Positions 6,481 to 13,690 of a stretch of DNA of 64,000 nt are shown here, piece after piece; the stretch's first letter is position 1; the number at the start of each line of letters is the position of its first letter. Under the pieces are notes generated by a model, which saw only the letters and a list, made by a program, of their open reading frames with translations, made no database searches and was not told where the DNA came from. Both the position numbers and the translations under genes were made by a program. Source of the stretch: an uncultured Clostridia bacterium (GTDB taxonomy: Bacteria; Bacillota; Clostridia; TANB77; CAG-508); assembly GCA_947629765.1 (NCBI GenBank), contig CANREW010000001.1:29442-93441 (forward strand), written 5' to 3'.

Positions 6481-6607
6481 TCGCCAAATCTCATCGGGGA
6501 TTTTATATTTATTATAAATTGAACCCACGCGGGAAACGCCTATGAAGTTTTTCGGGGGTCTTCAATTTCTTCTAAATATAAAACCCCTGCGTTTGGCTCT
6601 TTTAAAC
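6481..6607 (+). repeat. structured intergenic repeat, family B, copy 1 (about 125 nt)
   Basis: Three copies: 6481, 11218, 13565. Terminal inverted repeat cgccaaa...tttggc; internal ggggttttatat/atataaaccccc. This copy sits inside the loop of a flanking hairpin (aatcgttacaa...ttgtaacgatt) between convergent genes. Confidence 0.75.
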
Positions 6608-6643
6608 TAGTGATTTACAGTAACTTGTAACGATTTATAATTA

Positions 6644-7514
6644 TTATTTTAAAACAATTTCTTTTTTATTTAGATAATTTAAAATACCACTATCTGTTTT
6701 AAAATTGAAAACTAATTTATATGCGATAAGTTCCTGAGTTTTACAATTAAATTTTTTATTTATCTCATTAATTCCATATTTTCCGATCACCAATTATTGG
6801 ATGACCAATATGTGCTAAATGTGCTCTTATTTGATGTGTACGACCGGTATGGAGAATAACTTCTAAAATACTATAATTTTCTTTTTTATTTTCCTCTAAA
6901 ACAGTATATTCTGTTACAATAGGTCTATAACCTTTTTTAGATTCGTCACTAATATATGCCATAGATTTTTTGCTATCTTTAAAAAGATAAGCATTTAATA
7001 TTTGATGTTTTTGTTTAAATATGCCAACAACTTTGCATTTATAGTATTTTGTAATTTCAGAGGTTTTAAATTTTTCTAATAAAATATTAAGTACTTTTTC
7101 AGATTTTGCAAAAAGCACAAGTCCTTCTGTATTTCTATCCAACCTATGACAAGGCTTTAGATACGTGTTAGGATATTTTTTTAAAAACATTTCAGTTAAA
7201 GAATTTTCGCCAGTAACCTCTATATTTTTTGGCTTATTTACCACCAAAATGTTTTCATCTTCATAAATAGTGTCACAAGAAATTTCTTCACCTAAAAGAT
7301 ATTTATCTATAATATATACTTTTATATTATCTCCAGTATGAACTGTAATATTACCAGTTATTTTTATATCGTTCATTCTAATGTCCTTTTTCCTTAAAGC
7401 TTTAAAAAAAGTATTTTGTGTAAGGTTAGGAAATTCATTAAAAAGAAATGAACTTAATTTTTTATTATCAAATTTTTCATTTATAACTAAATTTTTCATA
7501 CTATTATTATACAA
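6644..7514 (-). pseudogene. RluA-family pseudouridine synthase, interrupted by a 1-nt C insertion near 6785
   Basis: ...HTGRTHQIRAHLAHIGHPIIGD then R-K-I-W-N-stop as written. Removing the C in gat C gga aaa gives HPIIGDGKYGINEINKKFNCKTQELIAYKLVF..., a canonical RluA C-terminus. Confidence 0.75.
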
Positions 7515-7645
7515 AAATTTACAAAAAAGAGCAATAGAGATGAAATTAAAATATTTTAAATATTTTAAAAATATTGTAGACTTTTACCAAAAAATAGGAT
7601 AAAATAATTTAAGAGAAAATAGATAAAAGATAAGGAGGAAGAGTT

Positions 7646-8858
7646 ATGCTTGTAGAAAAAATTATATTCAGTATTCTAGCATTTTATCTATTTATAGCAA
7701 TGTTTTTTAAAATGATTAAAAAAATAGATTCTGCATATATAGCAATACTAGTGCTCCAAGCTTTAGGAATAACAATTAGTTTTGTAGAAATCATATTTAG
7801 ATTAAATTATAATATTTTTGTAAAAATACTAGTATATATATTATCAATAGTTATTCCAATAATAATTATGTATATAGAGCATAAAGGGAAAAATTTTTCA
7901 GAATTTATATTTATAGCATTAGCAAAATTTTATGCATTTATGCGGAAATACTAAGAAGAGCAAAGATATATTATTATCACTTATAGAAAAATATCCAGAT
8001 AGTTATTCAGCACACAGAATGCTTGGAGAGGTATATGAAAAAGAAGGCGGAATGAGAAAAGCTATTGACGAATATGTAAAAGCTGTTGATTTAAATAAAA
8101 AGGACTATGATTCATATTATAAAATATCATATTTGCTAAATGAACTAAATAAGCCTGATGATGCGATTGTTATGCTAAATACACTCCTTAGTAAAAAACC
8201 AGAATATAGAAATGCAACAATGTTACTTGGAGATATTTTGTGCACACAAGAAAGATATAAAGAAGCATTAAACGTATATACAAATGGGCTTAAATATGCA
8301 CCAAATGATTATGATTTATATTATAATATGGGTATAGTATATACAATGTTAAATGATTTTCAAAATGCAAAGGTTTGCTATGAAAAAGCAGCGACTATAA
8401 ATAGTTTGCTTTATCATGCATATTACAGTTTAGGACAAATTAATTTAATTGAAATGGATTTGGAGGAAGCAGAAAAATATTTTACAAAAGCATTAGAAGA
8501 TAAGGATCAAGAACCAGATGCATATTATAAACTTGGAAAAATATATATGTTAAGAGGTGATCACGATAATGCAGTTAAGTTTGTAAATCTTGCAATTGAG
8601 CTTGATAATAACTATATAAAAATTGCAAATCAAGAGCCAATATTTATCCCAGTTAAAAGCAAATTCCAGATGCCAGTTATTGATGAAGAAGATATAAAAC
8701 CAAGGAAAACGAAACATAGCAAAAAAGAGCTAAAAGCAAAAGAACATCTAGATAAAACCTATAACATTGTTGGAAAATTAAATATGCATAAATTAAAACC
8801 AAGTATGAAAGCATATGAAGATTTGCAAAACGAAAATGAAAATCAAAAGGAAAGATAG
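7646..8858 (+). CDS. membrane-anchored TPR-repeat protein (as written: 102-aa 3-TM ORF 7646..7954 plus overlapping 308-aa TPR ORF 7932..8858)
   Basis: TPR repeats (AHRMLGEVYEKEGGMRKAIDEY..., YYNMGIVYTMLNDFQNAKVCYEKA...). No RBS before the ATG at 7932. Removing the C in atg C gga aat (near 7943) fuses the two ORFs in frame. Confidence 0.5.
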
Positions 8859-8869
8859 GAGAGATTAAA

Positions 8870-9676
8870 ATGTCAATTTTACAAGCACTTATTTTAGGAA
8901 TTGTACAAGGATTAACAGAATTATTACCAATTTCTAGTTCAGCACACCTTTACATAATACCATGGGTACTAGGCTGGACTAATTCTGCAACATTCAATGA
9001 AGCATTTGAGGCATTTGATGTTGCACTTCACGCAGGAACTTTACTTGCAATAGTTTTATTCTTCTTTAAAGATTGGATAAAATTAATTGTAGGAGGATAC
9101 AAACAAGTTGTAAAAAAGGAAAAAACTTTTGAAGGAAAAATGTTCTGGTATTTAGTAATAGCAACTATTCCAGGAGGAGCAATAGGATTTTTATTAGATA
9201 AATTTTTAGAAGATGCATTAACAACGCCAATCATTATAGGTATTGCACTAATTGTAATGGGAATTATTTTATATGTTGTTGATAAATACTCAAAGTCAGA
9301 AGTAGAATATAAAGATATGACATTTAAACAAACATTTTTGATAGGACTATCTCAAGCATTAGCATTTATTCCTGGTGTATCACGTTCAGGAGTAACAATG
9401 ACAACTGGTAGATTACTTGGAATCAAGAGAGAATCTGTCGCAAAATATTCATTTTTACTTTCAACACCAATTGTTGCTGGAGCAACTTTATATAAACTTA
9501 AAGATTTTGTTGTAAGTGTTCCATTTTTCGTAGGAATCTTAGCAAGCTTTGTTGTAGGAGTACTTGTAATTAAATTTTTAATGAATTACTTAAAGAAAGG
9601 TAGCTTTAAAGGTTTTGCAATATATAGAGTAATTGTTGGTATAGCTATTATCTTATTATGGATAATAAGGTTGTAA
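8870..9676 (+). CDS. uppP: undecaprenyl-diphosphate phosphatase
   Basis: MSILQALILGIVQGLTELLPISSSAHL...: BacA/UppP family. Confidence 0.9.
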   Translation: MSILQALILGIVQGLTELLPISSSAHLYIIPWVLGWTNSATFNEAFEAFDVALHAGTLLAIVLFFFKDWIKLIVGGYKQVVKKEKTFEGKMFWYLVIATIPGGAIGFLLDKFLEDALTTPIIIGIALIVMGIILYVVDKYSKSEVEYKDMTFKQTFLIGLSQALAFIPGVSRSGVTMTTGRLLGIKRESVAKYSFLLSTPIVAGATLYKLKDFVVSVPFFVGILASFVVGVLVIKFLMNYLKKGSFKGFAIYRVIVGIAIILLWIIRL

Positions 9677-9696
9677 TAAAAGAAGGGAGAAAAGAT

Positions 9697-13123: not shown

Positions 13124-13205
13124 AAATTTATTGCCCCTCATTATGGGGCTTTTTTTATATAATTTGAATATTATAATAAAAATTATGAAATTTTTGTAAA
13201 TTCTA

Positions 13206-13234
13206 TTGACAATAGTATTAAAAAGGTGTAAATT
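13206..13234 (+). promoter_or_regulatory. sigma-A-type promoter of the groESL operon
   Basis: TTGACA-17 nt-TAAATT immediately upstream of CIRCE. Confidence 0.5.
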
Positions 13235-13237
13235 ATA

Positions 13238-13264
13238 TTAGCAGTCGGAAATAACGAGTGCTAA
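13238..13264 (+). promoter_or_regulatory. CIRCE operator (HrcA binding site) upstream of groES
   Basis: TTAGCAGTC-ggaaataac-GAGTGCTAA, versus consensus TTAGCACTC-N9-GAGTGCTAA (one mismatch). Confidence 0.85.
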
Positions 13265-13282
13265 TCAAAGGAGGTATGTAAA

Positions 13283-13564
13283 ATGATTAAACCATTGTGT
13301 GACAAAGTTTTGATCAAAATGTGTGAAAGCGAAGATACAACTAAAAGTGGTATTATTCTTTCAGCAAACTCAAAGGAAAAACCACAAATTGCAGAAGTTG
13401 TTGCTGTAGGACCAGGTGGTAAAGTAGATGGAGAAATGGTTGAAATGTACATCAAAGAAAAAGATAAAGTAATTGTAAGCAAATATTCAGGTACTGAAAT
13501 AAAATATGAAGGCGAAGAATATATCATTGTTAAACAATCAGATATTCTTGCAAAAATAGTTTAA
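13283..13564 (+). CDS. groES: co-chaperonin GroES
   Basis: [46 protein letters not shown]... Confidence 0.9.
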
Positions 13565-13690
13565 TACGCCAAATCTCATCGCAGATTTTATTTTTATAAT
13601 AAATCGAACTCACGTAAGTTACACCTACGATGCTTTTCGGGAGTCTTCAATTTATTCTAAAAATAAAACTGCTGCGTTTGGCTAATTTAG
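13565..13690 (+). repeat. structured intergenic repeat, family B, copy 3 (within the groES-groEL spacer)
   Basis: Diverged copy at about 75% identity. Stem regions carry compensatory changes (gcagatttta / taaaactgc replacing ggggttttat / ataaaccccc). Located between the groES stop and the groEL RBS. Confidence 0.65.

Follow-up and report, generated by a model that had tools for sequence, protein, structure and literature searches.

The repeat that occurs three times in the analysed 64,000-nucleotide stretch of a Clostridia genome (the window) is very probably the palindromic inner part of a MITE, a non-autonomous DNA transposon of ~180 nt, with IS66-type ends. Bacterial MITEs are a known kind of element, and the repeat is a mobile element of ordinary type rather than an RNA dedicated to regulation. 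The family has a defined repeat structure, terminal inverted repeats (TIRs), target-site duplications (TSDs), many copies, and insertion polymorphism, and its ends are common with those of IS66-type elements. The complete element consists of a 15-nt TIR (GTTACAATTCACAGC), ~15 nt of AT-rich linker, a hairpin core of ~123 nt, a second linker, and the inverted TIR; it is non-coding, and its insertion generates an 8-bp duplication of the target. The element is probably mobilised by a transposase supplied in trans, a DDE enzyme from a divergent clade of the IS66 family; the autonomous elements of this clade have like ends and also duplicate 8 bp of the target. Copies 1 and 2 are full-length elements in intergenic DNA, and copy 3 is an immobile arm-less remnant in the groES-groEL spacer of one sublineage. 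Wherever the element is transcribed, a stable RNA hairpin would be expected.

Repeat copies in the window

A repeat search of the window placed the copies on the plus strand at 6482-6604, 11223-11345, and 13567-13689, about 123 nt each. The cores of copies 2 and 3 are 94% and 82% identical to the core of copy 1, respectively. The 15-mer CGCCAAATCTCRTCG has three exact occurrences in the window (five matches at up to three mismatches vs. 0.49 expected), and the family profile, built from 41 members, matches exactly three places, namely copies 1-3. The earlier note is right about the three copies. Its CGCCAAA/TTTGGC closing stem and G-run/C-run stem were both found, and the inverted repeats flanking copies 1 and 2 lie where it had placed them. 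The extents that it gave for these two copies hold for the inner core; the element itself is longer and spans 6451-6631 and 11193-11370. The features are as follows.

6451..6631, plus strand: copy 1, full-length element, 181 nt, core 6482-6604
6451-6465 (GTTACAATTTACTAT), partner 6617-6631: TIRs of copy 1, degenerate, 4+4 mismatches
11193..11370, plus strand: copy 2, full-length element, 178 nt, core 11223-11345
11193-11207: left TIR of copy 2, GTTACTATTCACAGC
11356-11370: right TIR of copy 2, T-run 11371-11385 directly after
13206..13264, plus strand: groESL control region, promoter-like TTGACA-17-TAAATT at 13206-13234, CIRCE at 13238-13264
13283..13564, plus strand: groES, 93 aa, Cpn10 (PF00166 on the identical protein)
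13564..13694, plus strand: copy 3, putative arm-less derivative, 131-nt insert relative to empty alleles, core 13567-13689
13714..15354, plus strand: groEL, 546 aa, Cpn60 (PF00118; 546 aa in empty alleles)

Copy 1 matched positions 4-183 of the family profile, and copy 3 only positions 29-170. The inverted repeat around copy 1 is formed by aatcgttacaa (6447-6457) and ttgtaacgatt (6625-6635), and that around copy 2 by gttactattcacagc (11193-11207) and gctgtgaatagtaac (11356-11370), followed by TTTCTTTTT. TIRs are absent from copy 3, which has no clear TSD; no recognisable TSD was found at copy 1, and none of the three window copies has a perfect one. According to a mechanical ORF list (minimum 50 aa), no ORF is confined to any copy, and the sole ORF overlapping one is an upstream extension of groEL from an ATG at 13630.

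The two genes around copy 1 converge on it: a 61-aa ORF that ends at 6426 and, on the minus strand, a gene for an RluA-type pseudouridine synthase (6768-7499). An empty site sought via this RluA-type gene was not recovered, as every contig carrying the gene ends inside the repeat; an earlier look-up of the same neighbour with a TTG start gave no match. Copy 2 is located downstream of a transketolase N-terminal gene (ending at 11170) and upstream of the gene for CTP synthase (11672-13123).

Ends, target duplications, and autonomous relatives of the family

The alignment comprised 41 distinct copies, those of the window and those of rabbit-gut "uncultured Clostridia" MAGs that a core 20-mer had retrieved. 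The family thus has the further copies outside the window that the earlier note had proposed to look for, with more than 40 across several rabbit-gut Clostridia MAGs, all of them intergenic. The same core 20-mer had no match among the scanned viral contigs, and many metagenome matches to a TIR 20-mer, at GC of about 0.44, were set aside as unrelated or unexplained, the motif there being internal to another repeat. Around most copies at other loci the arms are conserved, with the consensus GTTACAATTCACAGC / GCTGTGAATTGTAAC. Such pairs, spaced by 178-194 nt and with 0-3 mismatches, are present at many loci, and the TIR-to-TIR length of the elements is 178-182 nt. The arms are therefore the element's own 15-nt TIRs. 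Perfect 8/8 direct repeats flank 5 of the 21 TIR-bounded elements, compared to 0 of 420 mismatched-flank controls, so that about a quarter of the elements, and no more, retain a perfect TSD. Further perfect 8-bp TSDs were found at metagenome loci (CATTTTTA, TTTTCAAG, TATCATAT, and AATAGCGT). Together, the size below ~300 bp, non-coding sequence, TIRs, TSD of fixed length, dispersed multiple copies, and insertion polymorphism are the features of a bacterial MITE, and the MITE-like nature suggested earlier from the window alone is borne out by the TIRs, the 8-bp TSDs, and the copy number.

The same evidence contradicts the earlier view of copies 1 and 2 as invaders of host terminator hairpins: the arms recur at other loci, and the TSDs lie outside them. 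At the copy-2 site of the related strain L001, core and arms are both missing and a different terminator hairpin is present. The genome of L001 has the family elsewhere (L019, L023, L028, and L037). The T-run after copy 2 is host sequence, present also in the MITE-free L001 site; the two alleles differ by further changes and do not form a clean filled/empty pair. The basal stem of copy 2 has 16 bp, with UUUCUUUUU after it; a simple terminator scanner makes no call here. Copy 2 occupies the place of the related strain's terminator, its basal stem now adjoining the retained T-run.

The ~125-nt core could also be mobile in its own right and target hairpin loops, the long form being a nested insertion into a smaller palindrome or terminator. 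Copy 3 looks like such a bare core, cleanly delimited relative to the empty site, and in low-GC gut contigs the same TIRs surround other, unrelated sequences (44-210 nt), down to an element of 44 nt that consists of the TIRs only. However, the 8-bp duplications surround the arms and no core has a TSD of its own, the core-proximal sub-terminal sequence AAAGTCCGC... is common to other subfamilies (L087), and there is a gradation from arm-less copies to those whose arms are degenerate or one-sided (L026 and L028), as would be seen in decay. Copy 3 itself keeps 11 nt of right-arm-like sequence (AATTTAGAAAT vs. ATTTTAGATTT in copy 2). We regard an independent core as quite improbable.

The reading of the whole as a MITE with IS66-type ends agrees with the autonomous elements of 2.1-2.2 kb (L069, L174-L177, and L178), the ends of which are as in the MITE (GTTACTATTCACAG...). 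L069 is 2150 bp long, has perfect 16-nt TIRs (GTTACTATTCACAGCC), and encodes a 560-aa protein that matches PF03050 DDE_Tnp_IS66 with E 1.6e-10. The PF03050 matches in the autonomous relatives, not in the window, have E values of 1.6e-10 and 1.2e-11 and are above the gathering score. A 47%-identical homologue is encoded in a 2202-bp IS with the TIR GTTACTATTCACAGTTG; this IS was found in four genomic contexts, with perfect 8-bp TSDs in the three that have both flanks. The TIRs of L178 are GTTACCATTCACAGC and GTTACGATTCACAGC. Single TIRs in L048 and L067 adjoin housekeeping genes, not transposases. In gut metagenomes, the same end sequence also bounds a transposase-less gene cassette with AAA-ATPase and PD-(D/E)XK genes.

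Direct repeats of 8 bp are characteristic of IS66, whose canonical ends start with GTAAGCG and have IRs of 20-30 bp (PMC11946415). The ends of the family are 15-17 nt long and start with GTTAC(A/T)ATTCACAG, not with GTAAGCG; therefore, it represents a divergent clade rather than canonical IS66. The transposases of this clade share only ~25% identity with annotated proteins of the IS66 family, and a small unannotated ORF accompanies the transposase in place of tnpA/tnpB. Self-BLAST and tblastn searches of the window and of ~390 kb of host-lineage loci, which are fragments of incomplete MAGs, detected no IS66-type transposase. The transposase partner is therefore deduced from other gut contigs, which have a higher GC (0.40-0.47).

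A palindrome of the REP/REPIN or IS200/IS605 type, moved by a tyrosine (Y1/RAYT) transposase, would also be palindromic and intergenic, and copy 3 has no TSD. But TIRs of 15 nt and 8-bp TSDs are hallmarks of DDE transposition, and the matching autonomous elements encode DDE_Tnp_IS66. The TIR and TSD data refute this type of element, to which we assign a next to negligible probability.

Hairpin structure and the groESL copy

Each copy forms an extended, imperfect hairpin (z about -6 for both strands), and the whole copy 2 element folds as a single hairpin (-72.3 kcal/mol, z -8.3). In the core alignment, 98.7% of the cells are paired and seven pairs have double changes. The paired stems covary above both shuffle and slide controls. 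Copy 3 differs by the compensatory changes GGGG/CCCC to GCAG/CTGC, TATAT/ATATA to TATTT/AAATA, and CCC/GGG to CTC/GAG. These substitutions are present as had been reported, but they do not show selection on RNA structure: covariation is to be expected in any palindromic transposon and does not tell the strands apart. The strong pairing and covariation of the core are, on the other hand, not accounted for by a pure "junk" model alone. No evidence for either strand as the selected RNA strand was obtained: the ratio of G:U to A:C cells is 35 vs. 7, with 29 of the 35 G:U from one inherited column, and the orientation relative to flanking ORFs (15 sense : 9 antisense, from rough ORF calls with a 100-aa minimum) is not significant. 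The suggested Rfam search gave no family match for the repeat. At the gathering threshold, only a tRNA passes in the window, and over 6300-13900 at E up to 10, only chance-level miRNA and ARRPOF matches far below threshold appear; the ARRPOF match, at E 1.8, was put down to chance.

Element ends abut a T- or A-run in 10 of 42 cases, a weak enrichment over a whole-locus background of 7% that is not matched to intergenic DNA. As only this fraction of ends does so, the terminator shape is not built into the element.

The earlier placement of copy 3 within an operon is upheld by the promoter-like site and the CIRCE operator (one mismatch; 0.01 expected by chance) upstream of groES and by the spacer, inside which no terminator-like site is predicted; a single transcript through copy 3 is therefore implied. 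Copy 3 has the groES stop (13562-13564) on one side and the groEL Shine-Dalgarno sequence GAAAGGA (13695-13701) on the other, with the groEL ATG at 13714. Its first base turns the groES stop TAG into TAA. It has no U-tract. In the predicted centroid fold, the copy 3 hairpin forms and the groEL Shine-Dalgarno sequence stays unpaired. The in-frame ATG at 13630 lengthens the mechanical groEL ORF to 574 aa, the real start being 13714; in L003 the called groEL product is 522 aa vs. 546 aa in empty alleles.

Among strains with 100% identical GroES, the spacer is empty (16 nt) in L001, L004, and L005 and filled in the window, L003, and L006, and L002 keeps only the two ends of the insert. The insert is therefore dispensable. 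A TSD at copy 3, sought against the empty alleles, was not readable, as the alleles carry additional differences; copy 3 is either a full insertion that later lost its arms or entered by recombination.

The core could alternatively be chiefly a selected cis-acting RNA (a stabiliser, RNase III site, or terminator module) that by its position in groESL tunes GroES:GroEL, with transposon-like spread only as a vehicle; for REP, ERIC, and Correia elements, effects of a comparable kind are reported (review PMC3184786). The stable predicted hairpins, the covariation above controls, the necessary co-transcription of copy 3 with groESL with the Shine-Dalgarno sequence left free, and the U-run after the copy 2 stem would suit such an RNA. 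We nevertheless consider it improbable: the groESL copy is missing or half-deleted in strains with identical GroES, neither the orientation nor the G:U cells favour one strand, unrelated cores occur within the same TIRs, few element ends abut a T- or A-run, and Rfam holds no match. There is likewise a small chance that the core and the other inner modules between IS66-type ends in gut Firmicutes are selected RNA cargo (portable terminator, stabiliser, or processing modules), the TIR family acting as a shuttle and the groESL copy being a domesticated intercistronic regulator in one sublineage.

For a MITE, the modelled hairpin of copy 2 could still serve as a terminator stem, and that of copy 3 as a stabilising or processing site between the two cistrons. 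Such effects are regarded as side effects of insertion, not as the element's reason to exist, and any RNA-level effect of copy 3 on groESL is most likely a by-product.

Significance and relation to known mobile repeats

For annotation, the analysis removes a false lead (terminator invasion and a dedicated groESL RNA) and defines a MITE family of an uncultured low-GC gut Clostridia lineage by its ends, TSD length, and probable transposase family. The repeats break assemblies (copy 1) and cause gene callers to err at groEL. With its filled, empty, and internally deleted alleles, groESL offers a natural experiment on whether a ~125-nt intercistronic hairpin alters chaperonin stoichiometry. One IS66-type end sequence bounding many short inserts and a gene cassette adds modestly to IS66-family biology.

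The element resembles Correia/NEMIS of Neisseria, ERIC/IRU of Enterobacteria, RUP of S. pneumoniae, and bcr1 of the Bacillus cereus group, which are non-coding, 100-200 nt long, and have TIRs and a target duplication (review PMC3184786). Like these bacterial MITEs, it is multi-copy, intergenic, strain-polymorphic, folded as one long hairpin, and sometimes co-transcribed in operons. It differs from them in its unrelated sequence without an Rfam match, in ends of the IS66 type instead of the IS630 or IS5 type, and in its host, an uncultured low-GC (29%) rabbit-gut Clostridia lineage. The 8-bp target duplication is also unlike that of Correia, RUP, and bcr1. The duplication is of TA in Correia and RUP and of the TTTAT type in bcr1.

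Intercistronic REP sequences occur in the Salmonella histidine transport operon (cited in PMC3184786). Copy 3 is similar to REP/BIME as a repeated palindrome within a single transcript, with a cistron on either side; a stable hairpin in such a position can shield the mRNA upstream of it or provide a site for processing. REPs are, however, 20-40 nt long, GC-rich, without TIRs and TSDs, and linked to RAYT. Copy 2 resembles mobile repeats with hairpins at gene 3' ends in that the T-run directly follows its basal stem, and differs from them in that this T-run belongs to the host and is also found in L001.

Unlike members of the IS66 family, the window elements are without transposase and have ends starting with GTTAC instead of GTAAGCG (PMC11946415). 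They have in common with this family the 8-bp TSD and TIRs of 15-17 nt that are almost base for base those of L069, L174-L177, and L178.

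Copies and boundaries of the element

Three structured repeat copies are present in the window, as the earlier note had described. Their inner hairpins (cores) and, for copies 1 and 2, the full elements between 15-nt terminal inverted repeats (TIRs) are as follows:

Repeat cores and full elements in the window
6482–6604, + strand, core of copy 1 (repeat search)
11223–11345, + strand, core of copy 2 (repeat search; 94% identical to copy 1)
13567–13689, + strand, core of copy 3 (repeat search; 82%)
6451–6631, full element of copy 1, TIR to TIR
11193–11370, full element of copy 2, TIR to TIR

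The leading 15-mer of the repeat occurred exactly three times; with up to three mismatches, five matches were found vs. 0.49 expected. A profile from 41 family members matched exactly three places in the 64-kb window, end to end in copies 1 and 2 and limited to its central positions 29–170 in copy 3. A long imperfect hairpin was predicted for each copy on either strand (z approximately −6). The flanking inverted repeats quoted previously for copies 1 and 2 were also found (6447–6457/6625–6635 and 11193–11207/11356–11370, the latter followed by TTTCTTTTT). A rightward promoter-like TTTACA-16-TATAAT (11/12 matches; 6614–6641) spans the right TIR/flank junction of copy 1; the adjacent gene is on the opposite strand, and no target is evident.

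The family extends beyond the window, a point left for checking earlier. A core 20-mer used as a pattern returned 36 loci from six MAGs of rabbit-gut 'uncultured Clostridia bacterium', together with four matches that seem to be due to chance, and about 45 copies were counted by BLAST within these loci. When the copies were aligned with 80-nt flanks, similarity ran beyond the core, and most were bracketed by GTTACAATTCACAGC...(core)...GCTGTGAATTGTAAC. These arms are the sequences previously assigned to a host terminator around copy 2; those of copy 1 are a degenerate version. The element is 178–182 nt long from TIR to TIR. Perfect 8-bp direct repeats (target-site duplications, TSDs) were located directly outside the TIRs in 5 of 21 elements and in 0 of 420 mismatched-flank controls. 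Copies 1 and 2 had been read as invaders of host terminator loops; this is contradicted by the recurrence of the arms around most copies, by the TSDs outside the TIRs, and by contig L001, which lacks both core and arms at the copy-2 site.

Two other repeats were observed in the window. A ~150-nt palindromic family (2327–2474 and 5556–5705, 85–87% identical; 'family A' of the earlier note) has inverted ends CAATAATATTTATT...AAGAGGC / GCCTCTT...AATAAATATTATTG, not the GTTAC TIR, and is probably another MITE-like element. Tandem 21/42-nt repeats (ACGAGATTAGATAATCTTGA...) lie at 24039–24164, apparently in coding sequence.

Alleles at the copy-2 and groESL sites

At the copy-2 site, L001 carries a different hairpin (GATAATATT-TATATA-AATAATATTATC) followed by the same T-run; thus, the arms were not pre-existing host sequence there. 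Copy 2 nonetheless occupies a terminator position. It is predicted to fold as one −72 kcal/mol hairpin with a basal stem of 16 bp directly next to the T-run of the host, and so may substitute for the L001-type terminator. In the family as a whole, a T- or A-run adjoins only 10 of 42 element ends, so terminator mimicry is not a built-in property of the element.

Copy 3 is located between groES and groEL, with the following features around it:

Features around copy 3
13133–13149, predicted terminator of the gene preceding groESL
13206–13264, promoter-like site and CIRCE operator upstream of groES
13562–13564, groES stop codon
13695–13701, groEL Shine-Dalgarno sequence
13714, groEL start codon

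Among contigs encoding exactly the same GroES, alignment of the groES–groEL spacers revealed three allele types. The empty allele (L001, L004, L005) has a 16-nt spacer without the element, the filled allele (window, L003, L006) has a 131-nt insert (window 13564–13694), and L002 retains only the two insert ends (TACGCCAAAT|TTGCTACGTTTGGCT), an internal deletion of the palindrome. Since the L001 MAG (GCA_947629835.1, CANRFH) has the family elsewhere (L019, L023, L028, L037), the polymorphism is specific to the groESL site in a population that is ~96–98% identical. The allele sequences indicate that the element is mobile; its copy in groESL is an arm-less remnant and is polymorphic.

No terminator-like site was predicted in the groES–groEL spacer; together with the promoter-like site and CIRCE upstream of groES, this implies that copy 3 would be transcribed, in agreement with its proposed intra-operonic position. 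The centroid structure predicts that its hairpin (−31 kcal/mol) forms and leaves the Shine-Dalgarno sequence unpaired. An in-frame ATG at 13630 in copy 3 (region 13630–13716) lengthens the mechanical groEL ORF to 574 aa vs. 546 aa from the real start at 13714; the called product in the filled allele L003 is 522 aa, so the insert disturbs automatic groEL annotation.

A ~1.1-kb segment 3' of groEL (15355–16454), with a DUF4258 gene (15594–15920) and a YokU-like gene (15920–16150) that look like a toxin–antitoxin pair, occurs in both the window and L003. It is missing from L001, L002, L004, and L005, in which groEL and the sequence resuming at window 16455 are ~100 nt apart. At its edge lies one copy of a 47-nt repeat (16180–16226 and 54621–54667, 85% identical) with a perfect hairpin AGAGACACTGG...CCAGTGTCTCT. 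A second CIRCE operator with 1 mismatch (47542–47568; tRNA nearby at 47317–47388, − strand) presumably precedes another HrcA-controlled operon such as hrcA-grpE-dnaK.

Covariation of the hairpin

The consensus hairpin on 41 copies had 34 pairs, with 98.7% of cells paired. Both-sided changes occurred in seven pairs (1 of 500 shuffles had as many), and the covariation score was 0.124 vs. 0.048 for shuffles and far above slid controls; part of the right arm served as the search pattern and is thus invariant by ascertainment. Because covariation exceeds both controls, the compensatory changes reported earlier are real. The selection on RNA structure drawn from them does not follow: G:U cells outnumbered A:C cells 35 to 7 with 29 of the G:U cells from one column, all copies are intergenic, orientation between co-directional neighbors was 15 sense vs. 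9 antisense, and two derivatives, L002 and L015:307–392, have independently lost the interior of the hairpin. Such loss would be the decay expected for a long DNA palindrome.

Source of the ends and classification

The same ends bound other contents:

Related elements at other loci
L015:1157–1365, unrelated 209-nt element with the same TIRs
L031:7791–7928, 138-nt element with the same TIRs
L008:5318–5511, same sub-terminal parts, different apex
L015:307–392, deletion derivative

Scanning metagenomes for the motif of TIR plus linker yielded low-GC (0.24–0.31) gut contigs, several from human-gut assemblies, with TIR pairs 44–210 nt apart and perfect 8-bp TSDs (CATTTTTA, TTTTCAAG, TATCATAT, AATAGCGT). 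Most remaining matches belong to a high-copy repeat of GC~0.44 JGI metagenomes (Ga0056114/129/130 and Ga0209680), in which a longer conserved inverted repeat (TGTGGCTAAACGGTGCGTCCTAGAGCAAAA|GTTAC...; L047, L051, L053–L057, and ~60 other loci) contains the 20-mer GTTACTATTCACAGCCTATA. This repeat was set apart as unrelated; the motif in it may reflect chance, nesting, or distant relationship. GTTAC...CACAGC inverted ends also bound a 2.0–2.3-kb cassette (L050:4057–6065, L145:8064–10381, L049:3167-) encoding a 607-aa AAA-ATPase_like (PF09820) + PDDEXK_9 (PF08011) protein. With no transposase and no clear TSD, it looks similar to a mobile insertion cassette.

The source of the element's ends is a divergent IS66-family clade. 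In the 2166-nt contig L069, perfect 16-nt TIRs GTTACTATTCACAGCC delimit a 2150-bp element whose one ORF (560 aa) is identified by Pfam as DDE_Tnp_IS66 (PF03050, E 1.6e-10). This transposase shares only ~25% identity with the annotated IS66-family transposases of plasmids and has >1,100 metagenomic homologues, mostly on ~2-kb contigs. Ends were read in three homologues taken with flanks. P0091 (47% identical to the L069 protein) is encoded in an element of 2202 bp whose TIRs are GTTACTATTCACAGTTG. This element occurs in four distinct genomic contexts, the three with both flanks having perfect 8-bp TSDs (AAATTTTC, AAACCTTA, GAATCTTT); P0004 (71%) is flanked by GTTACCATTCACAGC and GTTACGATTCACAGC, and the right end of the P0013 element is GTTACTATTCACCGC. 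IS66 characteristically produces 8-bp direct repeats, and its canonical ends begin with GTAAGCG (PMC11946415); the duplication is common to both, whereas the ends here start with GTTAC, hence the designation as divergent. A search of the window and of ~390 kb of host-lineage loci for homologues of the L069 transposase found none, and mobilization in trans in this organism is therefore an inference.

A REP/REPIN-like identity is ruled out by the TIRs and TSDs, and the Rfam search suggested previously matched no family. The element is a bacterial MITE: small and non-coding, with TIRs, a fixed TSD length, many dispersed copies, insertion polymorphism, and ends common with an autonomous IS. In behavior it is similar to the Correia, ERIC, RUP, and bcr1 elements (review PMC3184786).
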